This document shows positions 2 through 58,475 of a stretch of 64,000 bases of DNA, one piece after another. Position 1 is the stretch's first letter. The number at the start of each line of letters is the position of its first letter. The notes beneath the pieces were generated by a model that was not told where the DNA came from, ran no database searches, and saw nothing but the letters and a program-made list of their open reading frames with translations. The stretch covers positions 22,608 through 86,607 of the forward strand of contig CAZFEC010000004.1 in NCBI GenBank assembly GCA_964517435.1, written 5' to 3'. This DNA comes from an uncultured Bacteroidia bacterium (GTDB lineage Bacteria > CAIWAD01 > BS150m-G50). Both the position numbers and the translations under genes were made by a program.

Positions 2-3000
2 CTGGCTATCGCCGCTTCCGCCGGCGCCGGCAAAACCCACCAGCTGGTAACGCGCTATATCGGACTCCTCCTGAACGGAGCCTCTCCCGCCGGTATCGTG
101 GCTCTGACCTTCTCGCGCAAAGCGGGCGGCGAGATCCTCGACAGCCTGGTTTCCCGGCTGGCCGGAGCGGCAGCACCGGAAGGCGGCGACAAGGCACTGG
201 CCGCTCTGGACGGGGATCTGCGTGGGGGGGGATACCTGCGCACCGGTGAGCAGCTGACCGTCGAGACGGCGGGAGAGCTGTTACGCACCGTGATACAATC
301 GCTGCACCTGGCGCGGATCGGCACCCTCGACAGTTTCTTCATCAGCATTCTCCGCGCCTTCCCCTTTGAATTCGATATCGGCGGCGATTTCGACATCATG
401 TCCGATTACGACGCCGACTGCGCGCGCCTGGAAGCGCTGATGCGCGTCTTCCTGGACGGTACCCCGGCGAGCGCCCGCCTGCTGTACACGCAATTCCGGC
501 AGGCGTTGTTCGGCCGGGATGAATTCAAAGTCTTCTCGCCGTTGAATGACTTCATCACCAAACGGTACGCGATCTTCCAGCTGGCACCGCGGCAGCGCTG
601 CTGGGGCGACGCCGCGGCGATCTGGCCGGAACGAAGCCCCTGGCCCGCCGTGAGCGTGGAGGAAGCAGCCGCCGCCGCGGATCGCTTGCGGCGGTTGCCG
701 GCGGATAAGCAACTGAAGGACGACAACCGCCTCAAATGGGAAGAGTTCCTGGCGGCGGCGGTCGCGCATCAGACCGGCGGGACCGTCGGCAAAGCGTTGG
801 AGTACTTCCTGAAAAAGCTGCTGCCCCGGCAGGCGGAACTCCGCGCCGGCGGACTGGAGCTGAATACTTTCAGGCAGAAATACACGTTGGCGGAGGAGGA
901 GTGCGAAGCCCTGCAGGTGCTGCTCAACCGGGTCTGTCACAACGTGGTCAGCGGAGTGTTGCGGCAGACGCAGGGCACTCACGCCCTGCTGCAGGCGTAC
1001 GAAGCCAGCTACGACCAACTGGTGCGCCGGCAGGGACGTCTCACGTTCCAGGATGTGCTCTATCTCCTCAATCCCGGCGACTCCGGCGCGGAACCGTACT
1101 CCACCGACCGGCTCAACCTCGACTACCGGCTCGACGCCATGCTCAATCACTGGCTGCTGGACGAGTTTCAGGATACCAGCACCTCCCAGTGGCTTCCCCT
1201 CGCCAACCTGATCGACGAAGTGCTGCAGGACAGCGAAGGGGGGCGTTCGCTCTTCTACGTCGGCGATGTCAAGCAGGCCATCTACAACTGGCGCGGCGGA
1301 AATTCCGAGCTGTTCAGCCAGGTTCTGGAGCGCTATAACGCCGCAACCACCCGCATTGAGCAACTGCCGCTGAGCAAATCCTGGCGTTCCTCACAGCCGG
1401 TCATTGATGCGGTCAACCAGGTTTTCCGGAATCTGCCCGGCGCGCAGGGACTGCCGCGGGCCGCCGTGCAGCGCTGGGAGCAGGCCTGGGCGGAACATTC
1501 CACCGAGCGTGAGGATTACCCCGGCTGCGTCGAACTGCACGTGGTACCCGCCCCCGCGCGGGGCGGTAAAGCCCAGGCCGGTTGCTTTGCGACCACCTTG
1601 CACCTGCTGCGCGAAATCGATCCCGGAAGGCGCGGCCTCGACTGCGCGGTGCTGGTGCGCCGCAATGAGACCGGCCGGCAGTTGGTGGACTTCCTGCGCG
1701 AGGCGGGACTGCCCGCGGTGTGGGAGGGGGAACAGCCGGTCGTCGAGAGTCTGCTGGTCTTGGCGTTTCGATCGCTGATCAAGGCCGCCTTTTTCGCGGA
1801 AGACACGCTCGCCTGGGAGTACCTCCGGATGACGCCGTTTGGTACGATCCTGCAACAGCGCTACGGGGGAAAGCGGAGCGAGGCGGCTGCGGCTGTACGG
1901 CGGCTGGTGGCCCGAACCGGCTATGCCGGGTTGATCCTGACCTGGCGGGATTGGCTAGAAGAGGGGACCGCCTGGGGCCGGGCGGAGGCGACCCAGGCCG
2001 GGGCGTTGCTGGAAGCGGCACTCGAGTTCGACCGCTCCGAAGCGAGCGGTCCTCTCGACTTCATAAAGTATACTGACCAGTACCGCAGCCGCACCCCCGG
2101 GGCGGGCGAGGCGATTCGGGTAACCACCCTGCATCAGGCCAAAGGACTGCAATACGACCTGGTGGTGCTGCCGGAGCTGCATCAGGATATCCGTGACAAG
2201 GATACGATTCTGGTCGGGACCGATCCCGCCACTCCCCTGCAACCGGATTGGGTGCTGATCAAACCGCAGTCTGATATCGCCGCCGCCGATCCGGTACTCG
2301 CCCTTCAACTGGACCGGCTGCAGGTCGAGCGGTGGTATGAGCAGCTCTGCCTGCTCTACGTAGGCATGACCAGGGCAGTATACGGTCTCTACCTGGTGGT
2401 CCCCGCGCGCGGCCCCTCGTCCAAAGCCGCCCGTCTCTCAACGGTGCTGCTGGACACGCTGGCCGCTGCACCCTCCGGCGAGGAGGCTGCTACTCTAGCC
2501 TGGCGCACCGGCGATCCAGACTGGTACAAGCAGGAACTCCCCCAACCGACACCGCGCCCGCCGGCAGCGGAGCAGTGGGAACTCAACTTCGAGACCACCG
2601 GGACGCCGCATCGTCTGGAACGTATCACACCGGCCGGAACCGTGATCTTTGAACAGGAAGCCGCTTCTCTCTTCCGGGCGGAGACGGGCAGAGCGGTGCA
2701 AACCGGTGCCGCGCTGCATGATCTGCTGGAGCAGGTCGATTGGCTGGATGCCTGTGATACAAAAGCGATCTGCGCGGAGTGGCGCCGTCACTCCGGTCTG
2801 CCGGACGAACTGGCGGCGGAGGTGGAGGCACATTTCGAAAACCTGATCTCAACGCCGGCCGCCAGGCAGCTGCTGTCGCATCCTGCGCCGGGAACGGAGT
2901 TGTGGCGGGAATGGAGTTTCGAGCTCGCGCACGATCACGAGTGGATTTCGGGGCGTTTTGACCGGGTGACGCTCGAGTGTGATACAAACGGCGACCCGGT

Positions 3001-3193
3001 CTCCGCCACGATCATCGACTACAAATCCAACCGGGTTGAGACCGCCGCTGAACGCGAACAGCTGCTGGAAACCTACCGGTCACAGATGCAGCTGTACAGG
3101 AGAGCTTTGCAGCAGCTGACCGGACTGCCGCCGGAGCGGATAGAGTTGATTATCCTGCTGACTGCGAGCGGGGAAATCGTAAAGGTAAACTAA
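2..3193 (+). CDS. UvrD/AddA-like ATP-dependent helicase with C-terminal PD-(D/E)XK (RecB-type) nuclease domain; 5' end lies outside window
   Basis: Reading frame open from nt 2. Walker A 'AGAGKTHQL' sits at the start of the visible part. UvrD-type helicase motifs are present. A C-terminal 'IIDYKS' nuclease-like motif is present. 1031+ aa. Confidence 0.8.
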   Translation: MAIAASAGAGKTHQLVTRYIGLLLNGASPAGIVALTFSRKAGGEILDSLVSRLAGAAAPEGGDKALAALDGDLRGGGYLRTGEQLTVETAGELLRTVIQSLHLARIGTLDSFFISILRAFPFEFDIGGDFDIMSDYDADCARLEALMRVFLDGTPASARLLYTQFRQALFGRDEFKVFSPLNDFITKRYAIFQLAPRQRCWGDAAAIWPERSPWPAVSVEEAAAAADRLRRLPADKQLKDDNRLKWEEFLAAAVAHQTGGTVGKALEYFLKKLLPRQAELRAGGLELNTFRQKYTLAEEECEALQVLLNRVCHNVVSGVLRQTQGTHALLQAYEASYDQLVRRQGRLTFQDVLYLLNPGDSGAEPYSTDRLNLDYRLDAMLNHWLLDEFQDTSTSQWLPLANLIDEVLQDSEGGRSLFYVGDVKQAIYNWRGGNSELFSQVLERYNAATTRIEQLPLSKSWRSSQPVIDAVNQVFRNLPGAQGLPRAAVQRWEQAWAEHSTEREDYPGCVELHVVPAPARGGKAQAGCFATTLHLLREIDPGRRGLDCAVLVRRNETGRQLVDFLREAGLPAVWEGEQPVVESLLVLAFRSLIKAAFFAEDTLAWEYLRMTPFGTILQQRYGGKRSEAAAAVRRLVARTGYAGLILTWRDWLEEGTAWGRAEATQAGALLEAALEFDRSEASGPLDFIKYTDQYRSRTPGAGEAIRVTTLHQAKGLQYDLVVLPELHQDIRDKDTILVGTDPATPLQPDWVLIKPQSDIAAADPVLALQLDRLQVERWYEQLCLLYVGMTRAVYGLYLVVPARGPSSKAARLSTVLLDTLAAAPSGEEAATLAWRTGDPDWYKQELPQPTPRPPAAEQWELNFETTGTPHRLERITPAGTVIFEQEAASLFRAETGRAVQTGAALHDLLEQVDWLDACDTKAICAEWRRHSGLPDELAAEVEAHFENLISTPAARQLLSHPAPGTELWREWSFELAHDHEWISGRFDRVTLECDTNGDPVSATIIDYKSNRVETAAEREQLLETYRSQMQLYRRALQQLTGLPPERIELIILLTASGEIVKVN

Positions 3194-3210
3194 GACGTTT
3201 GCGGACGTGC

Positions 3211-4584
3211 TCAGTCGAAGTGGAAGTACTGAGCCAGGTTGTAGTCGAATCCTTTTGGCAGATACTCGCCGGTATCATGGTGCAGATCGTATTTCAGGTT
3301 GATCTCGCGCCGGCTCAAAGCCTGGACGGCCGCCACCGCCCGTTCTATCTCCCCGACGGTGTTGTACAATCCCAGACTGAAGCGCACCAGGCCGGGCCGG
3401 TGGGTCAGATCTCCGTCGAGTATCCGCTGGGTGAAGGCCGCCACCGTTCGCTCGTTTACATCCATCACCTTGATGATGTAGGGGTGGGCGCAGAAGCAGC
3501 CGCCGCGGGTGCCGATGCCGTGCTCGAATTCCAGAACGGCGTTGACCAGCTCGTGCGGCAGATCCTCAATCATGAGTGAGATGACTCCCAGGCGGTTGGG
3601 GGGATCCCAACCGGCGGGTTGCCCGAAGATCCGCACTTCCGGTATCTGCTCCAGTTCACTCAGGAACAGCTGCGTCAACGCTTCTTCGCTCGTTTCCAGC
3701 GTGTCGAAACCGATTTCGAGTAGTGTCTTGGCCGCTTGCGCGAGGGCGATCGCACCGATGACGTTGGGGGTACCGGCCTCCAGCCGTTCCGGAGGCGGCG
3801 CCCACATTACCCGGTCTGTCGTGACCACCTCGACGCAACCGCCTCCTTCGATCAGCGGCGCCCGGGTGGTGAAGAAGTCGTGCGGGCCCACCAGCACGCC
3901 GCTGCCGTAGGGCGCGTACATCTTGTGGCCTGAGATCGAAATGAAATCGATCCCGCTGGCGGACATATCGATCGCCTTGTGGGGCGCCAGCTGTGCCGCG
4001 TCGAGGTGGAGCAGCGTATCGTAACCATGCACGATTTCAGCGATATGATCGTAGTCCGGTACCGTACCGGTGATGTTGGAAGCGCCGGTGACGGAAACCA
4101 GTTTGACGGCGGCGCCTTCCTGCGCCAACAGCCGTTCCAGGAAATCGAGATCGAAGGTGCCGTAGCTGTCCACCGGAATCCGGACCACCTCGGCGATATC
4201 ACGCCAGGGCAGGTCGTTGGCGTGATGCTCAGCCTCCGTGATGACCACTTTGTCCCCGGGCAGCTCCTGGGCGTAGTGCGCCAGCATGTTGATCGATTCG
4301 GTCGCGTTGCGGGTGAAGGCTACTATGGCATTGTCGGGAGCGCCGAGAAAGCCGCGAATGATCTCCCGCGCTTCCTCGAAAATGTGGGTGGCGAGGCGTG
4401 ATTTAAAACCGGAACCGCGATGAATACTGGCATAGTGGGGAATGAACTCCTCCAGCTTCGCCTGCACCGACTTCAACGCCGGTGTCGAAGCGCCGTTGTC
4501 GAGGTAGACATACGGCACCCGGCGGCCATCGGGCAGCGTAACGGTGCTGCCGTTGCCGACCACAATACTGCTCAGATCCTGCAA
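3211..4584 (-). CDS. Aminotransferase class V / cysteine desulfurase-like PLP enzyme
   Basis: 457 aa. A 'SGHKMYAPYGSGVL' PLP-lysine region is typical of the SufS/CsdA fold. Confidence 0.75.
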   Translation of the reverse strand: MQDLSSIVVGNGSTVTLPDGRRVPYVYLDNGASTPALKSVQAKLEEFIPHYASIHRGSGFKSRLATHIFEEAREIIRGFLGAPDNAIVAFTRNATESINMLAHYAQELPGDKVVITEAEHHANDLPWRDIAEVVRIPVDSYGTFDLDFLERLLAQEGAAVKLVSVTGASNITGTVPDYDHIAEIVHGYDTLLHLDAAQLAPHKAIDMSASGIDFISISGHKMYAPYGSGVLVGPHDFFTTRAPLIEGGGCVEVVTTDRVMWAPPPERLEAGTPNVIGAIALAQAAKTLLEIGFDTLETSEEALTQLFLSELEQIPEVRIFGQPAGWDPPNRLGVISLMIEDLPHELVNAVLEFEHGIGTRGGCFCAHPYIIKVMDVNERTVAAFTQRILDGDLTHRPGLVRFSLGLYNTVGEIERAVAAVQALSRREINLKYDLHHDTGEYLPKGFDYNLAQYFHFD

Positions 4585-5771
4585 GATTCTTCCTGACTGT
4601 TATCCCTTTTGACTCTCTGTGCACGGGTGTGGAACCGCCGCATCTCCGCCAGCAGGCGGTCGTTCTCCTCCGGGAGACCGATGGTGATACGCAGGCACTG
4701 CGGCAGGCCGAATGCCTGCAGGGGGCGCAGAATGATTCCCTGATGCAACATGTAATCATTCAGCCGTTCCATGGCGGTTTCGTCGCGGCAGACCAGGGTC
4801 ACAAAGTTGGCGGCGCTGTCCAGAATCTCCAGATCCAGCAGGCGCAACTCCCGTGATACCCGTACTATTTCGGTGCTGTTATTGTCGAGTACGCGCCGCA
4901 GGAAGTCGGTGTCGTCCAGTGCGGCTATGGCAGCGGCTTGAGCCGGAATGCTCGGTTCGAAAGGCAACTTGACTTTCATCAGACTGGCGATCAGCGACTC
5001 CTCCGCGAAGCCGTAACCAACGCGCAGCCCGGCCAGACCGTACGCCTTGGAGAAGGTACGCAGGGTGATGACATTGTCGTAGCGGTAAAGCAACGAATCG
5101 GAATAGTCCGGTTTGACGTCGGCGTATTCGAAGTAGGCTTCGTCCAGGATCACCAGCACATTCTCCGGTATCCGTGCGTAGAAAGTGTCGAACTCCTCGC
5201 CACTGAACCAGGAGCCGGTCGGATTGTTGGGATTGGCCAGGTAGATGATCTTGGTGCGGGGATTGATGGCGGCGGCAATCGCCTCCAGGTCATAGCGATA
5301 GTCGCGCAGCGGTATCTGGCGCAGCTTGACGCCACGCGAGTTGACCAGCACGTAGATGCCGATGAAGGAGCCGGCCGAGGTCAGCACCTCTTCGTCGTCG
5401 AAGAGAAAAGTCCGTATAATATTGGCCATGATCCCTTCGGATCCGCTGCCGATGATGACATTATCCGGCTCGACCTGAAAGCGTTCAGCCAGTTTGCGCC
5501 GCAGCTTGTAGCCGCCGATCTCGGGATAGCGGTGCGCCTCCGTCAACGACTCGCAGGCTGCTTTGACAGCCGCTTGCGAAGGCCCCAGCGGATTTTCGTT
5601 GGAAGCGAGTTTGATGATATTATCGAGCCCCAGTTCCCGGCGTACTTCGTCGATCGGTTTCCCCGGTCGGTAGGGAATCAGGTCGGATATGTTCTGCGGT
5701 GTCAGCGGTCTCAGGCTTTCCCCCAGGTTACGTTTTGGCGAAAAGTTAGGGTCTGGACCGGAAAGTTCCAA
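4572..5771 (-). CDS. hisC: Histidinol-phosphate aminotransferase
   Basis: Contains the 'LASNENPLGPS' and 'LIPYRPG' signature regions. 399 aa. Confidence 0.85.
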   Translation of the reverse strand: MELSGPDPNFSPKRNLGESLRPLTPQNISDLIPYRPGKPIDEVRRELGLDNIIKLASNENPLGPSQAAVKAACESLTEAHRYPEIGGYKLRRKLAERFQVEPDNVIIGSGSEGIMANIIRTFLFDDEEVLTSAGSFIGIYVLVNSRGVKLRQIPLRDYRYDLEAIAAAINPRTKIIYLANPNNPTGSWFSGEEFDTFYARIPENVLVILDEAYFEYADVKPDYSDSLLYRYDNVITLRTFSKAYGLAGLRVGYGFAEESLIASLMKVKLPFEPSIPAQAAAIAALDDTDFLRRVLDNNSTEIVRVSRELRLLDLEILDSAANFVTLVCRDETAMERLNDYMLHQGIILRPLQAFGLPQCLRITIGLPEENDRLLAEMRRFHTRAQRVKRDNSQEESCRI

Positions 5772-5796
5772 CTCACTCCTGTGCGGCGGTGATGAT

Positions 5797-5828
5797 AAAA
5801 AAACCCGGAAGGAGGGATCTCTTCCGGG
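5797..5828 (-). terminator. Intrinsic-terminator-like hairpin (CCCGGAAG-loop-CTTCCGGG followed by a T7 run on the − strand)
   Basis: An 8-bp GC stem plus a U-tract read on the − strand. It lies only about 25 nt upstream of the hisC start, so it may be leaky or act as an attenuator. Confidence 0.5.
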
Positions 5829-6043
5829 TGCGGCTAATTGAAAGACGAACTCCTACACAGCCAGAGTCCATCGAAGAGGGATAGTCCTTTATGGTTCACA
5901 CTGCCGCGGATGACTGGACTACTCCACCCGGGCAGCCATTACCTCCCGTGATATCCCGGTTGCACCGGACCGCTACCGCCGCGGCCGGTACCGGGGAGCG
6001 TGCCGGGGACGAACCCCGGCCGCTCCTCGTCCCGGAGTCAGGC

Positions 6044-6169
6044 TTAAATCAGAACCAGCAGGAGTAGAAACAACAGGAACAACGGTGACGACATGATGAG
6101 CATTGGAATGCTGACCCACTTCGTCTCGGTCCAGGCGCGCCTACGGTTTACTAACGTTGTCGCGCTCAT
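6044..6169 (-). CDS. Unannotated 41-aa small membrane peptide (MSATTLVNRRRAWTETKWVSIPMLIMSSPLFLLFLLLLVLI)
   Basis: An ATG is preceded by GAGAGGAGG with a 4–5 nt spacer. The N-terminus is basic and the C-terminus is a transmembrane helix. A TAA stop follows. It was too short for the ORF track. Confidence 0.4.
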   Translation of the reverse strand: MSATTLVNRRRAWTETKWVSIPMLIMSSPLFLLFLLLLVLI

Positions 6170-6793
6170 GTTGCCTCCTCTCTACCGTTGCTGATAGTGG
6201 TGAGAGTGATACCACCCTCCCCTGGCAGCTGGTCGCGTCGGCCCGTTCGTCCAGGTAGCATAGACCAAGTCCTTCTGTCGCTGCCAAACAGTTGGATTTG
6301 GCGGAAAGTGATGGCATACTGGCCTTGCATGCGGACGGTGTCGTGAGGGGAGGGTCGGTCTCTGGTTTCCTTCCTGTCCAGAAGGCCTTCCAATTCGGAA
6401 GGATGTGTCAGGTACCCACAGTACCGGAAGCACCGTTGATCATACCATTTTGATTTTAACCGTGTGCTGAATCATACCGTACAGAAAAAATCATTTTCGT
6501 CAGTAAAATCACTTCCAAAATATATCAAGCAAAGAGCGTGCCATATCGAATATGTAATATTATATTATTAACATAGGGAATATAAGACAACATCTGCAAA
6601 TATGCTGAAGCAGGAATCGAGGGCTATAATCGCGGAAACTGTTCAACGGTGCCAAATTCTGACCAAAGAGTGCCAGATGCTGATTGACAACTGGAAACCT
6701 CAAAAACAGTTGCAGGATCACCGGCGGGAATCTACATTTTGAGTTATGCTCATTCAGAATGTCTATCTTCAAAGGTACGGCGAGCATAACTTC

Positions 6794-6852
6794 ATAGTAT
6801 TTCCCGAAATACTATTATACTGGTAGGGCAGTTTAACTGGGAAATACTATAT
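6794..6852. promoter_or_regulatory. Inverted-repeat element ATAGTATTTCCC|GAAATACTAT plus a distal GGGAAATACTATA half-site (locus A of a 3-locus family)
   Basis: A perfect 10-bp inverted repeat with a 2-nt spacer. A second right half sits about 33 nt downstream. The element lies in the AT-rich region about 200 nt upstream of trxA. Confidence 0.5.
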
Positions 6853-7044
6853 CGCTTCAGAGGGGTTGAGATAAGGCACATCCAGTGTAATCCGCTATCT
6901 ACCCGGTTTTGCTTCGCTCTGATTGATACCGGGCGGCCCTCGTCCATCCTTGAAACCGCGCGAGGTGCGGAGTGATTTCACTCCGTATCGCTTCAGGTCT
7001 GCGCGTCGGCGGGCAATATCGATCGATAATAACTGGAGGGGGAA

Positions 7045-7365
7045 ATGAACGATATAACGGAAAGCACTTTCGCCGCGGAGGTACTGGAAGCCGGGCAACC
7101 GGTCCTGGTCGATTTCTGGGCGCCCTGGTGCGCTCCCTGCAAGGCAATGGCGCCCGTCCTGAAAGAAATCGCTGCCCACTTTGGCAAGCGGCTTAAAATC
7201 TGCAAACTCAACACGGATGAAAGCATGCAGATACCGGCGCAATACGGTATCCGCGGCATACCCACCCTGATCCTGTTCAAAGAGGGTGAAGTTATGGAGA
7301 GGATTGTCGGCGTTCGCCCCCGCCAATTCCTGGAAGAAACTATAGAGCAATACCTGGAGGAATGA
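7045..7365 (+). CDS. trxA: Thioredoxin
   Basis: 106 aa with a 'WAPWCAPCK' active site. Confidence 0.9.
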   Translation: MNDITESTFAAEVLEAGQPVLVDFWAPWCAPCKAMAPVLKEIAAHFGKRLKICKLNTDESMQIPAQYGIRGIPTLILFKEGEVMERIVGVRPRQFLEETIEQYLEE

Positions 7366-7721
7366 TGGGGCTGTTCAGTAAACTCTTCAACAAGGGTCAG
7401 CGGCCGGAGGAACTGGACGATTCCACGATCGACGCGGCAATCGCGGCCACGCATGAAAAACCGCTGCTGCTGCAATTCTTCTCCGATACCTGTCCCCCCT
7501 GCCGGGTGATGTCCGGTGTCGTGCGCGAACTCCAGCAACAGATGCCGGATAAGATCACCGTCGCCAGGGCGAATGTCTCCTATTCGGTGGAACACGCCGG
7601 CCGCTTCGCCATCCAGTCGGTCCCCACGGTCCTGATCTTCCGGCAGGGCAGGATGGTGAACCGCATCACCGGCCTGTTGCCGCTGGATCAATTGAAAGCG
7701 CGCGTCCAGGCGTACGTTTAA
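7362..7721 (+). CDS. Thioredoxin-family protein (CPPC active site)
   Basis: 119 aa with an 'FFSDTCPPCRVM' motif. Its start overlaps the trxA stop (ATGA). Confidence 0.7.
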   Translation: MMGLFSKLFNKGQRPEELDDSTIDAAIAATHEKPLLLQFFSDTCPPCRVMSGVVRELQQQMPDKITVARANVSYSVEHAGRFAIQSVPTVLIFRQGRMVNRITGLLPLDQLKARVQAYV

Positions 7722-7735
7722 CCTTAAGATAGCTG

Positions 7736-9073
7736 ATGTCAGGTTCTGTTTCGAAAGCTCCCGTGATCGTAATCGGCGCTTCGGCGGCGGGAATGGCTGC
7801 GGCGGTGGCGGCCAGACGTGCCGCGCCGGAACAGGAGATCATCCTCCTGGAACGCCTGCCGTACTATGCTTTCGCCAGCTGCGGACTGCCGGAAGTCATC
7901 AGCGGGCGTTTGAACGACATCAGCCCTCTCCTCCAACGCGATCCCTCACAACTGGGTGCCCGCTATGGACTCACCGTGCTGCTGCGGCACGAAGCGGTGC
8001 GGATCCAGCCGGGTCGACGCCGGGTCACCGTTCGCAATCTGGCGCGCGGCACGGAGGAGGAATTTGAATACGCGACGCTGATCCTCGCCACCGGCGCCCG
8101 TCCCGCAGTCCCGGAGCGCGCCGGTTTCCATATCCTCCGCTATCCGCATGAGCTGGAACCATTGCTGCCGCAGCTGCGCGATGACAGTTGCTCCCGGGTG
8201 CATGTCTCGGGCGGCGGCGCGCTGGGATTGACCCTGGTGGATGCCCTGCTGCGCCTGGGCAGGGAGGTGCACCTCTACGCGCGGGATGGGCTCCTGACCG
8301 ATTTCCCGCCGGAGATAACCCTGCCGTTGACGGCGCAGCTGGTGGAACGGGGAGTGATTCTGGAGCAGCGTCAACCCGCTCCCCCCGGCACGGGCGGCGA
8401 ACTGACCCTGCTGGCGCACGGCATTCAACCCTATCTGCCGGCCGGCCTGCAGGTCAATCCCGGCTGGCGGCAGGGAGTGCCAGTCGATCAGCAGTGTCGC
8501 ACCGAGGTGGCTTCCATTCTGGCCTGCGGCGAATGCACCCTCAGGCGGGAAGGGGGGCGGCTGACGCGCTGGACGAGCGGCGCGGCGGCGGCCAACCGCC
8601 AGGGCAAAGTTGCCGGTCGTAACGCGGTGGGAGGCAACGAACACTATCACGGTGTTCACGCCGTTCTGATCACCGTAGCCGGCTGGCAGATCGGACGGGC
8701 CGGTCTTTCCCTGCCCCGGCTCAAGCAGCTGTCGCGGCGACCGGCCACGGTCAGCGGCAGTTTCCGCCTTCGACCGGCCTGGCTAGATGAACGCGAGCTG
8801 TTTATGCGTTTGGATTTTGAACCGATTTCCGGTAAACTGCTGTCGTGCCACGCTTTTGGCCAAAGCGGAGTGCCGGAACGTATCAACCAGATGGCGGGCT
8901 GGCTGCAGGCGGGCGTGTCGCTTCACCAGTTGCACAACCTGGTCCACGCCTATCATCCGGAGTTTTCCGCCCTGACCGATCCCCTGGCCGCCCTGCTGGC
9001 GAAAGCGGACCAGGTAGCACGCCGAGGACGCGAACAGTTGACAACAGTGCCGAGGAATGGTCATGAAAGATAA
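7736..9073 (+). CDS. FAD-dependent pyridine nucleotide-disulfide oxidoreductase (CoA-disulfide reductase / NADH oxidase family)
   Basis: An N-terminal 'VIVIGASAAGMAAA' FAD-binding region. A single redox Cys sits in 'FASCGLP'. 445 aa. Confidence 0.75.
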   Translation: MSGSVSKAPVIVIGASAAGMAAAVAARRAAPEQEIILLERLPYYAFASCGLPEVISGRLNDISPLLQRDPSQLGARYGLTVLLRHEAVRIQPGRRRVTVRNLARGTEEEFEYATLILATGARPAVPERAGFHILRYPHELEPLLPQLRDDSCSRVHVSGGGALGLTLVDALLRLGREVHLYARDGLLTDFPPEITLPLTAQLVERGVILEQRQPAPPGTGGELTLLAHGIQPYLPAGLQVNPGWRQGVPVDQQCRTEVASILACGECTLRREGGRLTRWTSGAAAANRQGKVAGRNAVGGNEHYHGVHAVLITVAGWQIGRAGLSLPRLKQLSRRPATVSGSFRLRPAWLDERELFMRLDFEPISGKLLSCHAFGQSGVPERINQMAGWLQAGVSLHQLHNLVHAYHPEFSALTDPLAALLAKADQVARRGREQLTTVPRNGHER

Positions 9074-9485
9074 ACTGCACGCCATCCAATCCGCTTCCCG
9101 CCTGACCGGAGTGCCGATCGAAGAGATCCGCGACTACGAGAAGGAGGGACTGCTGATACCCCATGTCGCGGCTTCCGGCCGGCGCTGGTTTACCGACAAC
9201 GATCTGCAGAAGATCCGCAGCATTCGGGAACTGCTCCGCCGCGGTAAAACCTTCAATGACATCCTGCGCCTGGCCGCGCTGATTCCCTGCTGGAGTTTTC
9301 CCAAATGTCACCAGCGCGACAAGATCCAGGCTGCCTGCGAGGCGAAGCAGGACTTTCTGCAGCCCTGCTGGATCCTGACCAAGGAACAGCACAACCCGGA
9401 CCAGGAATGCCGTCTCTGTGAAGTCTACCAGCGCATTGAAGACTTCGCGGACCTCAATACCCTGCTGCCGCCGAGCAGCATCTAG
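9057..9485 (+). CDS. MerR-family transcriptional regulator with Cys-rich C-terminal domain
   Basis: An N-terminal HTH 'LTGVPIEEIRDYEKEGLLIP'. The C-terminal half carries about 8 Cys (CW, KCH, AAC, QPC, ECRLC). Confidence 0.6.
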   Translation: MVMKDKLHAIQSASRLTGVPIEEIRDYEKEGLLIPHVAASGRRWFTDNDLQKIRSIRELLRRGKTFNDILRLAALIPCWSFPKCHQRDKIQAACEAKQDFLQPCWILTKEQHNPDQECRLCEVYQRIEDFADLNTLLPPSSI

Positions 9486-9584
9486 CCCGACCACCCCCCC
9501 GCAACCAGCGTTGTCCCGGTGCGGGGGAGCGTTGACTTTCGCCCGCCGCCAAAGTAGGTTATGGTCAAACTCAAGTAGGATGAG

Positions 9585-10265
9585 ATGCTGCAGCTGACTG
9601 TACTGATAGTTATCGCTTACCTGCTCGGTTCGATTCCCACCAGCATTCTGGTGGTAAAGGGGATCAAGCGGGTGGATATCCGCGATTACGGCTCCGGTAA
9701 TGCGGGCGGAACCAACGTCGGCCGGGTGCTGGGGTGGAAATGGGCCGTGCTGGTGATTCTGGTGGATGCCCTCAAAGGCTGGCTGGCGGCGGCGGTGCTG
9801 CCGCTGTTCTTTCCCGGTACGCCTCTGGCCGCCGATCCCGGCTTCAGCAGTGTGATCGCCGGTGTGGCCGCCATGCTGGGGCATGTCTTTCCCCTTTTCG
9901 CCGGTTTCCGGGGCGGGAAGGGCGTGGCCACCGCGGCCGGCATCGCCATCGGTGTCTCGCAACCGTACTGGGTGATTCTGGCCGCACTCGGTCTCTTCGG
10001 GATCGTGCTGCTGAGCACCCGCTACATGTTCCTGGCTTCGATCAGCGGTGGCATCGCCTATGCCGTTCTGATCCATTTCTTTGCGGCGGCGGAAGCCGTC
10101 AGCCTGCGTATTTTCGCCATCGCCTGCGCGCTCCTGCTGATCATCCTGCATTACCGCAACATCGGCCGCTGGCGCCGGGGGGTGGAAAACCGCATCAGCC
10201 GCAAGTTGACCCCTGTTAGGCCTGCAATTGAGGACGAACCGCAAACAGGAGCTGAAGATGAGTGA
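9585..10265 (+). CDS. plsY: Glycerol-3-phosphate acyltransferase PlsY
   Basis: Contains 'GSGNAGGTN'. It is a polytopic membrane protein of 226 aa. Confidence 0.9.
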   Translation: MLQLTVLIVIAYLLGSIPTSILVVKGIKRVDIRDYGSGNAGGTNVGRVLGWKWAVLVILVDALKGWLAAAVLPLFFPGTPLAADPGFSSVIAGVAAMLGHVFPLFAGFRGGKGVATAAGIAIGVSQPYWVILAALGLFGIVLLSTRYMFLASISGGIAYAVLIHFFAAAEAVSLRIFAIACALLLIILHYRNIGRWRRGVENRISRKLTPVRPAIEDEPQTGAEDE

Positions 10266-11265: not shown

Positions 11266-11268
11266 TTG

Positions 11269-12555: not shown

Positions 12556-12576
12556 ACAGCATACTGAAACCGGCCG

Positions 12577-48821: not shown

Positions 48822-48857
48822 GGTGGTGTTCATGTATCACAACGAGACAGACTCGCT

Positions 48858-49346
48858 ATGAAGGCATATCTGGGGCTGGGCAGCAATCTGGGGCAGCGAC
48901 TGGAGCAGCTGCAGCGAGCAGTGGAATCGCTGCAGGCGGAAGGTCTGCGCATCTGTCGCAGCTCCTCCGTGTACGAGTCGCCCCCGTGGGGTTACACCGA
49001 ACAACCGTCTTTTCTAAACGCGGTGATTGAGATCGAAAGCGAGCTGGAACCGGCGGCATTGCTGGCGGTCTGCCGCCAGACCGAGCGGGAGCTGGGGCGC
49101 ATTCCACGGCCCCGCTGGCAGGCGCGGGAAATCGATATCGACATTCTCCTGATCGAAGAGCTGGTCGTGCGGGAGCCGGAGCTGACCGTTCCGCATCCGC
49201 ATCTGCACGAACGGGATTTCGCTCTGATTCCGCTGCTGGAAATTGCTCCGGATCTGACCGATCCGACCAACGGCGAGCGGTTGGCTGATTGTCTGCCCGC
49301 CAAGGGGGCCTTAAAGATGTATCACACTGGAAAGCTGGCATGTTGA
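48858..49346 (+). CDS. folK: 2-Amino-4-hydroxy-6-hydroxymethyldihydropteridine pyrophosphokinase
   Basis: Contains 'AYLGLGSNLG…SPPWGY'. Confidence 0.9.
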   Translation: MKAYLGLGSNLGQRLEQLQRAVESLQAEGLRICRSSSVYESPPWGYTEQPSFLNAVIEIESELEPAALLAVCRQTERELGRIPRPRWQAREIDIDILLIEELVVREPELTVPHPHLHERDFALIPLLEIAPDLTDPTNGERLADCLPAKGALKMYHTGKLAC

Positions 49347-50248: not shown

Positions 50249-50464
50249 CCCTCTCCCGGGTATGATCCCCGCTGTCTCGTGTTCTGTATCACGGCAATAC
50301 TATAATACCGGTTTCAGACGTACATTATTAGCGATCATCGGCATAGTTGTAACAAGTCCGGATTTCTATTCTATCTTGTTTACAGGACCTTGCTTGCAGG
50401 CAAGACCTTGTGCGAGGACTTGTGAACAAGGCCTGCAGCAGCCCGTTCGGACCAATCGTCCCGG

Positions 50465-51157
50465 ATGGACCGGCGGACGGGTTGCCTGGTGAATAAATGT
50501 GAACTGCTGGAGCCGATCTTGTCCTTCGATTACCAGATTATAGCCGCGCAAATCATCGTACTGCTCTTCGCGATCGTGTTTCACGAGGTCGCGCACGGCT
50601 GGGTGGCTTCACGCCTGGGCGATCAGACCGCCCGGATGCTGGGCCGGCTGACTCTGAATCCGTTGCCGCATATCGATCCCCTGTTTTCGATCGTCATGCC
50701 GATCGTGACCACCCTGACGCTGGGCTTTCCCTTCGGCGGCGCCAAACCGGTTCCGGTGAACCCCTACAATCTGCGACAGCCGCGGCGCGACATGGCGCTG
50801 GTGGCCGCCGCGGGCCCCCTGTCCAATCTGCTGCTGGCCTTTGCCGCCGGGATGCTGTTCCGCGCGCTGTTGCCGTTCCATGTATCACATTTCATCCTGA
50901 TCCTGCTGCAGATGGCGGTGATCATCAACCTGCTGCTGGCCGGATTCAACCTGTTGCCGCTGCCGCCCCTGGACGGTTCCCGGGTTGTGGCTTACTTTCT
51001 GCCACCCCACCTGGAAGCGAAGTGGCGGGCGCTGGACCGGTTCGGTATCATCATCATCCTGCTGATCTTCATGTTCGCCGACTCGCTGGTATTGGGAGTG
51101 GTTTTCGGTTTCATTCGTTTCTTCGCGCGGATTTTCACCGGGATGCCGATCATCTGA
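50465..51157 (+). CDS. Peptidase M50 (site-2 protease)-family membrane metalloprotease
   Basis: Contains 'HEVAHGW' (HExxH) and a 'LNPLPHIDPL' region. The start is uncertain. Confidence 0.8.
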   Translation: MDRRTGCLVNKCELLEPILSFDYQIIAAQIIVLLFAIVFHEVAHGWVASRLGDQTARMLGRLTLNPLPHIDPLFSIVMPIVTTLTLGFPFGGAKPVPVNPYNLRQPRRDMALVAAAGPLSNLLLAFAAGMLFRALLPFHVSHFILILLQMAVIINLLLAGFNLLPLPPLDGSRVVAYFLPPHLEAKWRALDRFGIIIILLIFMFADSLVLGVVFGFIRFFARIFTGMPII

Positions 51158-51417: not shown

Positions 51418-53276
51418 ACTCAATCGCCGACAGCAACGTGATACAAATTCTCGCCGACAACCTGATCAACAAGATCGCCGCGGGCGAGGTTATTGAACGG
51501 CCGGCCTCCGTGGTCAAGGAGCTGGTCGAGAATGCCCTTGACGCGGGTGCCGACACGATCACCATCGCCGTGGAAGCGGGCGGCAACAACCTGGTGCAGG
51601 TCACCGACAACGGCGGCGGCATGTCCAAACCGGACCTGCTGCTGTCGGTGGAGCGGCACGCCACCTCCAAGATCGGCAGCTACGACGATCTGACCCGCGT
51701 GCGTTCGCTGGGTTTCCGGGGTGAGGCGCTGGCTTCGATCGCTGCCGTGGCGCGACTGGAGATCCGTACGGCGCAGCCGGAAGCTGAACACGGCTATCTC
51801 CTCGAGGTCGAGGACGGCGAAATCAAGCGCGTCGATTCCGCTCCTCCCCTGCGGGGAACACAGGTCGTGATACGCAACCTGTTTTACTCGACGCCGGTGC
51901 GGCGCAAGTTTCTCACCAGCACGAAAAACGAGCTGCGCCGCGTGATACAAATCGCCAGGCACTTCTTCCTCGCCTATCCTGAAGTCGCTTTCCGGTTGAT
52001 CAGCGAGGGTGAGGAACTTTTTAATCTGCCGGCGCAGGACCTGAAAGCCCGCCTGTCTGCAATCTACAACGACGACATCAACCGCAAACTGATGCTGATC
52101 GAGGGAGAGGAGAACGGCATCCGGGTCAGCGGTTTCCTCGGAAAGATGACCACCTTCCGCCGTTCCTACGGCGAGCAGTTCCTGTTTGTCAACCGGCGTT
52201 TTATCAGCAATCGGGTCATCAATCACGCGGTGTTCTCGGCGTACGGCAATATGCTCGAACGCGGGCAGGTGCCTTTCTTCCTGCTCAACCTCGAACTCGA
52301 CCCGGAGCGCATTGATGTCAACGTGCACCCCACCAAGCGGGAGATCAAATTCGAGAACGAATCGCTGATCCACCAGCTGGTGAACCGCCTGGCGCAGGAC
52401 GCGCTGAGGCAGGGTGCCGCCAACGAGCTGGAGCTTTCCTCGGGCGACAGGGTCCGGTTAGGGCGGGGCGCCAATGAGTTCGAATTGCCGGCCGGCGACC
52501 GGCCTCAACACGATCGGCGGAGCGGCGCGTATCCCGCCGGTGCGGGGAGCGGAGCGGGCGCACGTGCCGCCGGCACCCAGCGGGTAACGCCGCAACAATT
52601 CGAGCTGCAGGGGGAGATGTTCGGCGCGCAAACCGATTCAGCTGCAGAGGGTGACGATGTTGCCGGCGCCCCCGTGTCTACACCCTTGCCGACCGGGGCG
52701 GGGGAGACCGGGCAGCCACAGATGTGGCAGATCCATCGCAAGTATATCCTGGCCGAGGTGCAGAGCGGCCTGATCATCGTCGACCAGCATGTGGCACACG
52801 AGCGCATTCTGTACGAACAGGCTTTGGCGACCTTTCAGGGGCAGCGCTGCAGCGGTCAGCGGGTGCTCTTCCCGGTCAAATTCAGCCTGTTGCCGGATGA
52901 GGAAATCGCCTTCGAGGAGCTGGCCGGCATGTTGACCGGACTCGGATATTCCTTTGTTAAAATGGGTGAAGCGACCTGGGTGATAGAGGAGGTGCCGGCC
53001 GATCTGAAGCAGGAGTCGGAGGAGCGGTTGATCCGCGATATCATCGCGCAATACGGCGATTACCGCGATGCCGCGGAGGAGCTGCGGGAGGCGATGGCGG
53101 CGACCTTCGCCTGTAAAGCCGCTATCAAAGCGGGCGAACCGCTTACCCAGGCCGAGATGCGCTACCTGATCGACAGCCTGTTCGCCTGCCGCTATCCCTA
53201 TGCCTGCCCGCATGGACGCCCGGTAGTGATGAACCTGACCCTGGCTGAACTGGACAAGCGATTTGGACGCACCTAA
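51414..53276 (+). CDS. mutL: DNA mismatch repair protein MutL
   Basis: A GHKL ATPase N-terminus 'KELVENALDAGA'. A C-terminal dimerisation domain is present. Confidence 0.95.
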   Translation: MNSIADSNVIQILADNLINKIAAGEVIERPASVVKELVENALDAGADTITIAVEAGGNNLVQVTDNGGGMSKPDLLLSVERHATSKIGSYDDLTRVRSLGFRGEALASIAAVARLEIRTAQPEAEHGYLLEVEDGEIKRVDSAPPLRGTQVVIRNLFYSTPVRRKFLTSTKNELRRVIQIARHFFLAYPEVAFRLISEGEELFNLPAQDLKARLSAIYNDDINRKLMLIEGEENGIRVSGFLGKMTTFRRSYGEQFLFVNRRFISNRVINHAVFSAYGNMLERGQVPFFLLNLELDPERIDVNVHPTKREIKFENESLIHQLVNRLAQDALRQGAANELELSSGDRVRLGRGANEFELPAGDRPQHDRRSGAYPAGAGSGAGARAAGTQRVTPQQFELQGEMFGAQTDSAAEGDDVAGAPVSTPLPTGAGETGQPQMWQIHRKYILAEVQSGLIIVDQHVAHERILYEQALATFQGQRCSGQRVLFPVKFSLLPDEEIAFEELAGMLTGLGYSFVKMGEATWVIEEVPADLKQESEERLIRDIIAQYGDYRDAAEELREAMAATFACKAAIKAGEPLTQAEMRYLIDSLFACRYPYACPHGRPVVMNLTLAELDKRFGRT

Positions 53277-54189
53277 GCCGCACTGCCTGATCCTTACCGG
53301 TCCCACCGGTGTGGGCAAGAGCGCTCTCGCGCTGCTGCTGGCCGAGGAGCTGAACGGCGAAATCGTTTCCGCCGATTCCCGCCAGGTATACCGCGGTTTT
53401 GATATCGGTACCGCTAAACCCACCCCGGCCGAGCTGGCCCGGATTCCCCACCACCAGATCGACACCCGCGATCCCGCCGAGGATTACAGCGCCGGTGAGT
53501 GGGCGCGTGATACAATTCCGATCGTACAGGCGATCCAGGACCGCGGCCGGCTGCCTTTGATCGTCGGCGGCTCAGGCTTCTACCTGGAAGCGTTGATCCA
53601 TCCGTTTTATACGATGAGCCCACAGCCGGGGGAACAGCGGGAAGCCCTCCTCCGGCAGTACACCGATCTGACCAACGAGCAGCTGCACGAGGAGCTGGAA
53701 CGCGTCGACCCCGATTCCGCCGCCGCCATCGCGGTGAACGATCGCCGCAAGCTGCTGCGCTACCTGGAGATCAGCAGCCTGGAAGGCGCTCCTCCCTCCG
53801 AGGTGTTTCAGCGTCCGGCGCTGCCGGCTGCCGTCACCTACACGCTGTTCGTGATACACACAGAGCGCGAGCTGCTCTACCGGCGCATCAACAGCCGCGT
53901 GGAAGAGATGATCGCCCGGGGGCTGGTGGATGAAGTCCGCAACCTGCTGGCAAGCGGCAGCCGTCCGGAGGACAACGCGATGCTGAGCGTCGGCTATCGC
54001 GAGATTGTATCACATCTTCAGGGGGAATCCACCCTGGCGGAGGCGGTCGCGGCGATTCAGAAAAACACCCGGAACTACGCCAAGCGCCAGCTGACCTGGT
54101 TCAAACGCTGGTCCGACGCCAGGTGGCTGGACTGCCCGGCCGAGACCACCATGGCGGAACTGGCCGCTCACCTGCGGAGGCAGTTTTGA
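53263..54189 (+). CDS. miaA: tRNA dimethylallyltransferase
   Basis: Contains 'ILTGPTGVGKSALAL'. Confidence 0.95.
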   Translation: MDAPKPHCLILTGPTGVGKSALALLLAEELNGEIVSADSRQVYRGFDIGTAKPTPAELARIPHHQIDTRDPAEDYSAGEWARDTIPIVQAIQDRGRLPLIVGGSGFYLEALIHPFYTMSPQPGEQREALLRQYTDLTNEQLHEELERVDPDSAAAIAVNDRRKLLRYLEISSLEGAPPSEVFQRPALPAAVTYTLFVIHTERELLYRRINSRVEEMIARGLVDEVRNLLASGSRPEDNAMLSVGYREIVSHLQGESTLAEAVAAIQKNTRNYAKRQLTWFKRWSDARWLDCPAETTMAELAAHLRRQF

Positions 54190-56549: not shown

Positions 56550-57725
56550 ATGCCGGAATACTTCGTCGATCCGCAGATATCACACCTGTCCCGTCGACCC
56601 ACCGAGGTGGAAATCGACCTGGCGGCGGCACGCCACAACCTCGCCGCAGTCAGGAAGCTGACCAGCGCCCGCATCATGCCGGTCGTGAAGGCTAATGCCT
56701 ACGGTCACGGCATTCTGGAGATGTCCCGTTTCTTTGAACGGGAAGGGGTGGACGCGCTGGCGGTCGGATTTCTCGAGGAGGGCGTCCTCCTGCGCACTCA
56801 CGGCATTCAGCTGCCGATCCTGGTGATGGGAGGCATGCTCAACGATCAGGCTGAGGAGTACCTCGCCCACAACCTGATCCCCACGGTATCATCACTGTTG
56901 AAAGCGGAGCAGGTCGCGGCCGCGGCCGCGCGTCGGGGAACTACCGCCGCGATCCACCTCAAGATCGACACCGGTATGGAGCGCATCGGCGTTCACTGCG
57001 CCAACGCGCTGACTTTCGTCGAAGCGGTGCTGGCCATGCCTGGCATCCGGGTGGAAGGCATCTATTCACATTTCGCCACCGCCGACCAGCGTGAGAATAC
57101 CTTCGTCGAAGAACAACTGCAGGCCTTTCTGGGACTCCTGGCGAAGTTGGAGCGTCGCGGTATCGCTATTCCGCTGCGCCATCTGGCCAATTCCGCCGGT
57201 CTGATCCGCTTTCCCGACTCGCACCTGAACCTGGTACGCCCCGGCCTGATGCTCTACGGTTGCAGTGCGGCCCCCTGGCTCGCGCAGGAGGTCGAGCTGC
57301 GGCCGGTGCTGAGCCTGAAATCACGGGTCGTCTACTTCAAAGTGGTCGACGCGGGCAAGGGAATCAGTTATGGACATCGCTACGTCACCCGGACGCAGAC
57401 CCGTGTAGTGACCGTCCCGGTCGGCTACGGCGACGGCTACGATCGTGGTCTGAGCGGCAAGGGCGCAGTATTGATCGGCGGCAGGCGGCTGCCGATCGTC
57501 GGTTCGATCTGTATGGATCAGTTCATGGTCGACATCGGCCCGGACGGCACGGCCTGGAACGGCGATGAGGTAGTGCTGATCGGCCGGCAGGGTGAGGAAT
57601 GTATCACGGTGGAAGAGATCGCGGACCGTCTGGGGACAGTACCCTGGGAAGTCCTGACCCGTCTCAATACCCGCATGCCGCGGGTGTATAAGGATGCGGA
57701 TGGGAAGACAACTCCAAACTGCTAG
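56550..57725 (+). CDS. alr: Alanine racemase
   Basis: Contains the 'VVKANAYGHGI' PLP-Lys motif. Confidence 0.95.
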   Translation: MPEYFVDPQISHLSRRPTEVEIDLAAARHNLAAVRKLTSARIMPVVKANAYGHGILEMSRFFEREGVDALAVGFLEEGVLLRTHGIQLPILVMGGMLNDQAEEYLAHNLIPTVSSLLKAEQVAAAAARRGTTAAIHLKIDTGMERIGVHCANALTFVEAVLAMPGIRVEGIYSHFATADQRENTFVEEQLQAFLGLLAKLERRGIAIPLRHLANSAGLIRFPDSHLNLVRPGLMLYGCSAAPWLAQEVELRPVLSLKSRVVYFKVVDAGKGISYGHRYVTRTQTRVVTVPVGYGDGYDRGLSGKGAVLIGGRRLPIVGSICMDQFMVDIGPDGTAWNGDEVVLIGRQGEECITVEEIADRLGTVPWEVLTRLNTRMPRVYKDADGKTTPNC

Positions 57726-57925: not shown

Positions 57926-57982
57926 AATAGTATTTCCCACTTAGAAGGTCCTGGTTGTTCGCAACATTTCGAGAAATACTAT
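57926..57982. promoter_or_regulatory. Inverted-repeat element ATAGTATTTCCC-N32-GAGAAATACTAT (locus B)
   Basis: It has the same half-sites and about the same spacing as loci A and C. Confidence 0.5.
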
Positions 57983-58034
57983 GAAGTGATGCTCGCGATC
58001 GCTTCTGAAGAGGGACATTTTGTATGAGCATCAC

Positions 58035-58475
58035 TCAGAACGGAATATCATCATCGTCGGCGTCGGCCGCTGCCGTCTCCGGGCTGGCGGTCTCCTTTGC
58101 CGCCGGCGGCGCGTAGACATCGGCGTTCGAGCCGCCCTCCCGCCGCTCCAGCGAGATCAGATCGTTGGCCACGATCTCCGTCTTGTAGCGCTTGGTGCCC
58201 TCTTTGTCGGTGTAGGAGTCGTAGGTGATACGCCCTTCGACATATACCAGTGAACCCTTGTGCAGGTTTCGCTCCGCGCTGTCGGCCTGGTAGCGCCACG
58301 CCTTGATGTTATGCCATTCCGTCTTTGTATCCCATTCGCCCGTTTCCCGGTTCTTGATACTGAAATCGGTAGCCATGGAAAAGGATGCCACCTTCACGCC
58401 GCTGGGAGTGGAACGGATTTCCGGATCGCGTCCCAGTCTGCCAATCAGCATTACCTTGTTAAGTGCTTTCATCAT
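58035..58475 (-). CDS. ssb: Single-stranded DNA-binding protein
   Basis: An OB fold and an acidic C-terminal 'DDDIPF'. Confidence 0.95.
   Translation of the reverse strand: MMKALNKVMLIGRLGRDPEIRSTPSGVKVASFSMATDFSIKNRETGEWDTKTEWHNIKAWRYQADSAERNLHKGSLVYVEGRITYDSYTDKEGTKRYKTEIVANDLISLERREGGSNADVYAPPAAKETASPETAAADADDDDIPF

Follow-up and report, generated by a model that had tools for sequence, protein, structure and literature searches.

Why should one short word recur along a bacterial chromosome about once per kilobase, on either strand and mostly inside genes? The question is raised by a 64-kb stretch of DNA (hereafter the window, meaning the whole stretch that was analysed), which lies inside a 117.7-kb metagenome contig (ENA SUTE22-1_SAMN10231893 scaffold_157 of ERZ23498658, the same as JGI Ga0118727_1000334) and in which the octamer GTGATACA, or its reverse complement TGTATCAC, is repeated far above expectation. 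On protein sequence, the window lineage is an uncultured marine member of the Candidatus Delongbacteria, in the Fibrobacteres–Chlorobi–Bacteroidetes (FCB) group: its closest SMC proteins are 57–58% identical, and one member of the cluster is named Candidatus Delongbacteria in NCBI. In this study, we describe the extended form of the octamer, YGTGATACA, as a lineage-specific signal on double-stranded DNA. Among the roles that such a signal might play, we lean, tentatively, towards that of a self-recognition tag for natural transformation.

Abundance and shape of the motif

An exact search of the window for GTGATACA (+ strand) and TGTATCAC (− strand) found 46 copies, 26 of the former and 20 of the latter, spanning positions 290–57607 at a density of 0.72 per kb. 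These counts agree with the approximate ones of the original prediction, which had put the expectation below one copy, close to the value of about one obtained here. In 100 dinucleotide-preserving shuffles of the window the expectation was 0.82 and the maximum 4, and Markov backgrounds of order 1, 2 and 3 give 0.7, 1.3 and 2.3 copies, the enrichment being 35–55-fold; the claimed excess is therefore borne out in the window, also over a Markov background (46 against 0.7–2.3). The base composition on which the earlier estimate was built (G and C 0.32, A and T 0.18) was slightly off, the measured values being G 0.308, C 0.302, A 0.196 and T 0.194. In this DNA of 61% G+C, the A+T-rich octamer is the third commonest 8-mer, behind CCGCCGCC and CGCCGCCG. 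When the contig is followed from window coordinate −6790 to 73778, a span of 80.6 kb, the number of copies rises to 51.

At the base preceding the octamer (−1), 24 copies have C, 21 have T and a single one has G, A being absent, and because this base is nearly always C or T, the full motif is YGTGATACA. Outside positions −1 to +8 the flanks are unique and carry no information, save a weak preference for A nearby. The motif is non-palindromic, only its TGT..ACA part being self-complementary. One-mismatch variants are barely enriched as a class (44 observed, ~32 expected), with two exceptions, GTGATACG (9 against ~2 expected) and GTGAGACA (5 against 0.85). A short and non-palindromic word, found about once per kb on both strands, has the form known from uptake tags, its genome-wide copy number being extrapolated here from 80.6 kb.

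Several sources of repetition were considered and rejected. The unique flanks, together with the location of 92% of the copies inside genes, exclude a longer repeat, a mobile element, and repetitive extragenic palindromes (REP) or miniature inverted-repeat transposable elements (MITE); the earlier concern that the motif might be concentrated in one repeated or mobile element is removed by the same flanks. The NTS/dRS3 repeats of Neisseria, which are cut by Ssn nucleases, are also abundant repeats and modulate transformation, but their anatomy is different, since they are hairpins of ~30 bp of which 2% are intragenic (PMC11893778), as against an 8-mer with 92% of copies in genes. Paired motifs were also sought in viral contigs, where nothing but tandem repeats in coding sequence came up.

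Motif-bearing and motif-free lineages

Six lineages with the same gene order were compared, and copies were counted per locus of ~23.5 kb. In clade A, the window lineage (61% G+C) has 28 copies, L084 (50%) has 18 and L089 (53%) has 15. In clade B, L092, represented by the 3.72-Mb contig ERZ21862645 ctg38548l (57.5% G+C), has 21 copies plus 12 of the variant GTGACACA, and its sisters L091 (64%) and L093 (67%) have none. Protein identity is 69–74% within clade A, 51–55% within clade B and ~42% between the two. The motif, at 0.6–0.9 octamers per kb in L084, L089 and L092, has outlasted large differences in G+C content and a long divergence; L092, though, bears it while two of its sisters do not. 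In the case of L092, the 12 copies of GTGACACA compare with 0.6 expected in 23.5 kb, so that the effective motif is GTGAYACA, at 1.4 per kb, and position −1 accepts G as well; this is a dialect-like shift of the motif. Elsewhere the octamer is at background: unrelated bacteria have 22 copies in 1.53 Mb, and distant relatives have one in 227 kb. Motif-free Delongbacteria genomes include GCA_020634015.1 and Ga0172373_10002146. Like an uptake tag, then, the motif is common to related lineages, among which it has a variant, and is missing from other bacteria.

The window lineage and the L084 lineage (~69% protein identity) were recovered from a single sequencing run of anoxic-basin material, SRR8062321 (L003/L088, L086), so two species with the same motif live side by side. 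Each population is near-clonal, its assemblies being at least 99.95% identical, with no usable strain polymorphism. An assembly artefact or chimera was rejected, as the sequence is identical in the ENA, JGI and Logan assemblies and the gene order is kept in the relative. Other routes to relatives were less productive: a UvrA query of genome contigs returned distant phyla only, the protein being too conserved, a metagenome scan with the TrxR-like protein gave no match, and a scan with a GWxTD alignment gave only distant, motif-free relatives.

Reading frames, codons and conserved sites

According to the gene calls of the contigs, 42 of the 46 copies in the window are intragenic, 24 in sense and 18 in antisense. 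All five stop-free combinations of strand and phase are used, where at least three phases had been claimed, and the unused sixth would place a TGA stop in frame. Sense copies read V-I-Q/H or x-D-T, and antisense copies read C-I-T, x-Y-H or x-V-S-x. The four intergenic copies (starting at 18251, 38310, 48833 and 50285) are in line with the ~8% non-coding fraction, and therefore there is no enrichment upstream of starts; the copies that had been placed 25–45 nt before several genes are no more numerous than chance allows, and the one assigned to the M50 protease gene lies ~170 nt from the start.

The effect on codons was measured by counting every peptide position able to spell the motif with synonymous codons alone, here called compatible. 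Where the contig is rich in the motif, 47 of 66 compatible positions do spell it. When the same orthologous genes are compared, the fractions are 23/29 in the window lineage, 15/28 in L084, 15/23 in L089 and 14/22 in L092, as against 0/12 in L091 and 0/10 in L093; occupancy is therefore 54–79% in the four motif-bearing lineages and 0/22 in the motif-free sisters. The peptides YVIQNR and AVIHDP illustrate the point, as L091 encodes their isoleucine with ATC and the motif-bearing lineages use the rare ATA. In addition, compatible peptides occur at 1.2–1.5 per kb in motif-bearing and 0.6–0.67 per kb in motif-free lineages, and this twofold difference means that the proteins themselves have been bent towards the motif. 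A reshaping of the proteome of this pattern is described for the uptake signal sequence (USS) and the DNA uptake sequence (DUS) (PMC2817400).

Individual sites are conserved as well. Ten of the 23 genic copies of the shared region lie at the identical codon position in both L084 and L089, where the null for sharing with both relatives is 1.9% over all 8-mers and 5.4% at positions with identical amino acids (p ~1e-7 to 1e-11). Against the L084 lineage alone, 18 of 32 copies are conserved, in a comparison with 67% nucleotide identity overall and in which identical amino acids share their codon 43% of the time. The sites common to L084 and L089 are all present in the window lineage. Of the 14 sites of L092, only 2 are shared with clade A, and over the longest divergence the sites are therefore replaced. 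It is on DNA and not on protein that the signal acts, as the original prediction had proposed: codon occupancy and the conservation of sites across species both support this, and a protein-level cause is excluded by the use of five frames and by the same peptides being encoded by other codons in the motif-free sisters.

A candidate tag for DNA uptake

We favour, tentatively, the reading of YGTGATACA as a self-recognition tag like USS and DUS, kept by biased uptake and recombination, because its abundance, its sharp and asymmetric specificity, its use of frames, the distortion of codons and peptides, the sharing at family level and the conservation of sites match the class of uptake signals. 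The likeness to DUS and USS in density and intragenic location had been pointed out before and is supported, with weak polarity. In the mechanism that we envisage, point substitutions would create the motif at any site where the protein can accommodate it, and fragments that bear it would be preferred by a DNA receptor on the cell surface, a part of the natural-transformation machinery. Motif-bearing alleles would then be taken up and recombined more often than motif-less ones, and molecular drive would spread and keep the motif, within the limits set by protein selection, the DNA being marked as 'self'. Both uptake or transformation as the biased step and the existence of the receptor are what we infer from this likeness. 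Biased uptake with recombination is reportedly the accepted mechanism for uptake signals, following the molecular-drive work of the Redfield group.

A number of observations weigh against the tag. Competence, pilus and receptor genes are absent from the 80.6 kb of contig that were read, all motif-bearing loci come from one syntenic neighbourhood, and a literature search found no work on transformation or competence in Delongbacteria; nor did it find a paper tying GTGATACA to uptake or over-representation. About half of DUS and USS are in terminators (bioRxiv 10.1101/2025.10.24.684340). In the 80.6 kb, no link between motif and terminators is seen: of 51 copies, only 4 are intergenic, and the sole closely spaced inverted pair, GTGATACA-N12-TGTATCAC at 35193–35220, is intragenic, within an htrA-like gene. 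Both arms of this pair are kept in L084 and the left arm in L089, and L092 has GTGACACA at the left arm.

Also against the tag are two blocks without a copy, which the original prediction had not noticed: block 1 at 2987–13521 (10.5 kb) and block 2 from 57608 to at least 73778 (at least 16.2 kb, running to the window end at 64000 and 9.8 kb beyond it). A stretch of the size of block 2 has a chance probability of ~1e-5, and in both blocks together 0 of 12 compatible sites are occupied, against 47/66 elsewhere (Fisher p = 3e-6), compatible peptides being as frequent there as in a motif-free genome. A uniform uptake drive does not predict such native deserts. Native they are, with a G+C content of 0.59–0.60 and native tetranucleotide content. 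The genes of block 1 stand in the same order in the L084 lineage, at an ordinary divergence (57–84% protein identity), and the orthologue of the block in that lineage (contig L115) is itself motif-poor, with 3 copies in 9.1 kb as against 12 in 12.1 kb of flanks. In the case of block 2, the best match of TopA beyond the clade is in the L092 genome, a Delongbacteria genome, so that TopA is vertically inherited. Composition, ordinary divergence and the TopA match exclude foreign DNA as the origin of the blocks; unusually conserved genes are excluded by a divergence equal to that of the rich blocks, and an assembly error by the agreement between assemblies and by one Logan contig that bridges the junction of rich block and motif-free block. 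In Haemophilus, the largest gap in USS is a foreign island (PMC7811141). A third stretch without copies, 4 kb at 51% G+C beside an integrase upstream of addB, may be acquired DNA.

This alternation between stretches holding ~1 copy per kb and the two native deserts (10.5 kb and at least 16.2 kb) would suit a different, and in our view rather unlikely, explanation: an abundant sequence-specific binding protein, chromosome-structuring or regulatory, for which the motif is kept in some multi-gene domains as a domain code. The motif-poor orthologue of block 1 in a relative of ~69% protein identity, the conservation of individual sites and the runs of orientation given below are all in its favour. 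To our knowledge, no nucleoid protein has a sharp 8–9 bp specificity at ~1 site per kb; moreover, the copies show no intergenic or promoter preference, selection per site among thousands would be very weak, yet occupancy reaches 54–79%, and the loss of the motif in two syntenic sisters argues that it is dispensable. That YGTGATACA is no uptake tag but a cis-acting chromosomal signal, which some machinery would read block by block, with domains either saturated (~70% of compatible sites) or free and partly conserved between species, is also unlikely; if true, it would constitute a new kind of sequence-encoded marking of chromosome domains in bacteria.

The blocks also bear on the possibility that the motif is a by-product, without a function of its own, of biased mutation or mismatch correction similar to very-short-patch repair. 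Copies do arise by point substitution at compatible sites, the process is off in the sister lineages, and GTGACACA and GTGATACG co-occur with the motif. Nevertheless, a repair system would have to skip the motif-free blocks, no depletion is seen among the one-mismatch neighbours taken together (44 observed, 32 expected), and such repair biases, as far as we know, shift word frequencies less than 2-fold and not 35–55-fold, all of which makes this explanation very unlikely.

Orientation of the copies

Relative to genes, the four motif-bearing lineages taken together have 74 sense and 42 antisense copies (64%), made up of 27:20 in the window lineage, 23:10 and 12:3 in two relatives and 12:9 in L092. 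The ratio departs from an even split (p = 0.004 against 50%) and also from the 75% of a Chi-like motif (p = 0.007), and it fits the 15:7 availability of sense and antisense compatible peptides in the motif-free relatives (p = 0.32). The statement that both orientations are roughly equal holds for strands (26:20) and in the sense that a strong polarity is lacking; it fails by gene, where the inequality fits peptide availability. All compared genes point one way, so that transcription and replication are inseparable in these ratios, and the window has a G-C skew of +0.01. For USS and DUS, too, an uneven sense/antisense distribution within genes is on record (PMC2346458).

Orientation is also where a further candidate can be judged, namely a role as Chi site for AddAB, the helicase-nuclease whose genes lie at the beginning of the window; recognition of the motif would attenuate degradation, load RecA at double-strand breaks and mark self. 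Both addB and addA are present, with 8 copies in 6 kb, and the known Chi sites of RecBCD and AddAB are likewise non-palindromic, 5–8 nt long and over-represented in core DNA. Two of the lineages favour the coding strand (23:10 and 12:3), which is probably the leading strand. The polarity is nonetheless much weaker than that of Chi, in the window (27:20) and L092 (12:9) as in the pooled set (64% against 75%), and the pooled bias is explained by the availability of peptides (15:7). Chi is enriched a few-fold in E. coli; an enrichment of 35–55-fold, with a majority of compatible sites occupied and codon usage heavily distorted, is far above that level. Native motif-free blocks of 10–16 kb would, furthermore, leave core genes unprotected. 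We regard a Chi function as quite improbable.

Along the contig (290–57607), the orientation of successive copies forms 16 runs where ~24 are expected (permutation P = 0.014), as with uvrC, whose three copies are antisense, and with the brkB-like gene, whose three are sense. These runs may reflect the peptide make-up of each gene.

Comparison with known motifs

USS of Pasteurellaceae (core AAGTGCGGT) and DUS of Neisseriaceae (ATGCCGTCTGAA and its dialects) are, like YGTGATACA, short non-palindromic motifs that recur about once per kb, occur in either orientation and lie mostly or often in genes; USS have been reported at one per ~1 kb (PMC7811141), and DUS at nearly 1,500 to a Neisseria genome (PMC2346458). 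They also have in common with it substitutions in the least costly frames, effects on the proteome, variants among related species, many position-conserved copies and a sense/antisense bias in genes. In contrast, YGTGATACA is unrelated in sequence and has a shorter core (8–9 bp), and its host is no proteobacterium: it belongs to the FCB group, in a candidate phylum that is uncultured. It further differs by lacking a link with terminators or inverted repeats, by its native motif-free blocks and by an enrichment in repair genes that is not significant: this enrichment, a possibility raised along with the original prediction, amounts to 0.82 copies per kb in genome-maintenance genes and 0.55 elsewhere (p = 0.11). 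The contig is dense in such genes (addB, addA, ligA, dinG, uvrC, uvrA, smc, mutL and ssb, at window positions 98–58475 and in the flanks), and a xer-type recombinase gene and topA just past the window end add to the cluster.

HIP1 of cyanobacteria (GCGATCGC; the highly iterated palindrome) offers a second comparison, and with it a further explanation. It is also an over-represented octamer, at ~1 per kb, intragenic and position-conserved (PMC5861425), and it is spread over a deep clade with exceptions. By analogy, one or several orphan DNA methyltransferases could have YGTGATACA as their target, the motif being kept by methylation-dependent repair, strand discrimination or recognition of incoming DNA, and the fact that one-mismatch variants are barely enriched would suit recognition by an enzyme. 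HIP1, however, is a perfect palindrome with known cognate methyltransferases; YGTGATACA is asymmetric, unlike HIP1 and most orphan methyltransferase targets, no cognate enzyme is known for it, and a methyltransferase gene is absent from the 80.6 kb that were read. We consider methylation an improbable basis for the motif. HIP1, which is the one other class of hyper-abundant octamer, is itself reported to enhance transformation (bioRxiv 10.64898/2026.06.24.733823), a context that favours the uptake tag.

YGTGATACA joins the hyper-abundant DNA-level motifs of the USS, DUS and HIP1 type, as an atypical member without a terminator link and with native motif-free blocks. Self-recognition tags at such density are established only in two proteobacterial families, HIP1 being a probable third case, and the uptake reading, if true, predicts self-preferring natural transformation in organisms that have never been grown. 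From a practical point of view, the motif would be a lineage barcode available at no cost, of use in binning metagenome-assembled genomes and in detecting foreign DNA in them, and the syntenic motif-bearing and motif-free sisters would offer a natural contrast in which phyletic profiling could reveal the recognition protein. The native motif-free blocks, which the standard form of molecular drive does not predict, could show what limits such motifs.

Copies along the window

In the following, + and − stand for GTGATACA and TGTATCAC, copies in genes being sense when + and antisense when −, and conservation refers to the orthologous position in relatives, L115 being a contig of the L084 lineage. 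The addA gene carries a copy at 290–297 (+; phase 0, VIQ), which has two mismatches in L115, and two more at 2754–2761 and 2979–2986 (both +; phase 1, CDT) that are kept there. Block 1 follows, with genes for two aminotransferases, two thioredoxins (Trx), a TrxR-like protein, MerR, PlsY, GpsA, AsnS, an acylphosphatase and a PRTase. It ends at ligA, with copies at 13522–13529 (−; phase 1, LYH; three mismatches in L115), 14212–14219 (+; phase 1, RDT; kept in L115) and 14702–14709 (−; phase 2, FVSR; one mismatch in L115), and the next copy is in efp, at 15733–15740 (−; phase 1, LYH; kept in L115).

Between gcvH and gcvPA, the copy at 18251–18258 (+) provides, with its GTG, the first possible start of the longest gcvPA open reading frame (456 aa), where the relatives are called at 436–448 aa; the motif can thus yield false start calls, like the ATG of the neisserial DUS. 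The copy in gcvPB (20738–20745; +; phase 1, GDT) has four mismatches in L115, and dinG has one at 21792–21799 (+; phase 0, VIH) that is kept in L115 and another at 22740–22747 (+; phase 0, VIQ). No relative could be aligned at the latter, nor at the three copies of uvrC, all −, at 24716–24723 (phase 0, CIT), 25278–25285 (phase 1, LYH) and 25927–25934 (phase 2, GVSH), nor at that of a radical-SAM gene (29306–29313; −; phase 2, GVSR). The copy in uvrA, at 31271–31278 (+; phase 1, RDT), is kept in L084.

Three copies are found in the window lineage only, in cbiQ (33334–33341; −; phase 1, MYH), truA (33963–33970; −; phase 1, VYH) and the htrA-like protease gene (35060–35067; −; phase 2, AVSR). In this last gene, the inverted pair consists of a left arm at 35193–35200 (+; phase 0, VIQ) and a right arm at 35213–35220 (−; phase 2, YVSR), with a 12-nt spacer, and is followed by copies at 35349–35356 (+; phase 0, VIH; kept in L089) and 36006–36013 (+; phase 0, VIH; kept in L084). 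Downstream, psd has a copy at 37019–37026 (+; phase 1, RDT) in the window lineage only, and the pssA-like gene one at 38074–38081 (+; phase 1, RDT) that is kept in L084 and L089. An intergenic copy at 38310–38317 (+) lies 37–44 nt upstream of purS. The two copies in purQ are at 38645–38652 (+; phase 1, RDT), kept in L084 and L089, and at 39101–39108 (+; phase 1, CDT), in the window lineage only.

Conservation in both L084 and L089 is also seen for the copies in smc (42439–42446; −; phase 2, DVSH), for the second of two in a GWxTD-domain gene (44186–44193; +; phase 1, CDT), the first of which (43878–43885; −; phase 2, SVSQ) is restricted to the window lineage, and for that in an ABC ATPase gene (45488–45495; +; phase 0, VIH), where the motif-free L091 has the same AVIHDP spelled GTG ATC CAC. 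The brkB-like gene has copies at 46285–46292 (+; phase 0, VIQ), kept in L089, at 46483–46490 (+; phase 0, VIH), kept in L084 and L089, and at 46591–46598 (+; phase 0, VIQ), kept in L084, L089 and L092, with the same YVIQNR written with ATC in L091. In folB, the copy at 48634–48641 (−; phase 1, VYH) is found in the window lineage only. An intergenic copy at 48833–48840 (−) lies 18–25 nt upstream of folK, which has its own at 49318–49325 (−; phase 1, MYH; kept in L089), and the intergenic copy before the M50 protease gene (50285–50292; −) is followed by one inside that gene at 50881–50888 (−; phase 2, HVSH; kept in L089). Both copies in mutL, at 51438–51445 and 51942–51949 (+; phase 0, VIQ), are kept in L084 and L089. 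For miaA no relative was aligned, and its copies are at 53507–53514 (+; phase 1, RDT), 53851–53858 (+; phase 0, VIH) and 54006–54013 (−; phase 2, IVSH). The last copy in the window is in alr, at 57600–57607 (−; phase 0, CIT). It borders block 2, which encodes SSB, VanZ, YjeF, HAD, MlaD and PTS IIB within the window and then EIIA, HprK, HPF, Xer, TopA and two Por_Secre_tail proteins.

Other features of the contig

The asnS gene of block 1 (11266–12555) has its best AsnS matches beyond the close clade at 64–70% identity, under labels that include Melainabacteria, Deltaproteobacteria and Elusimicrobiota, and none of them comes from the L091 or L092 contigs. In L092, gatB and an amidase gene adjoin smc. 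From these sequences, asnS may have reached the close clade by transfer, and its relatives would rely on the transamidation route. The contig also carries purL and a gene for a subtilase with a type IX secretion sorting domain.

A second word, TAGTATTTC, occurs 9 times, always between genes and often as facing pairs in divergent intergenic regions; its sites include 6795–6849, 18258–18265, 57928–57981 and 60905–60958, as well as 69033 beyond the window. The related count for TAGTATTT is 55x over expectation. Judging by its sequence, TAGTATTTC resembles a −7 promoter box of the TAnnTTTG type that is recognised by sigma factors of the FCB group. Three TAGTATTT boxes lie at 5852–7033, a region of 1.2 kb which has a 41-aa call but no convincing gene and which separates divergent aminotransferase and thioredoxin genes.

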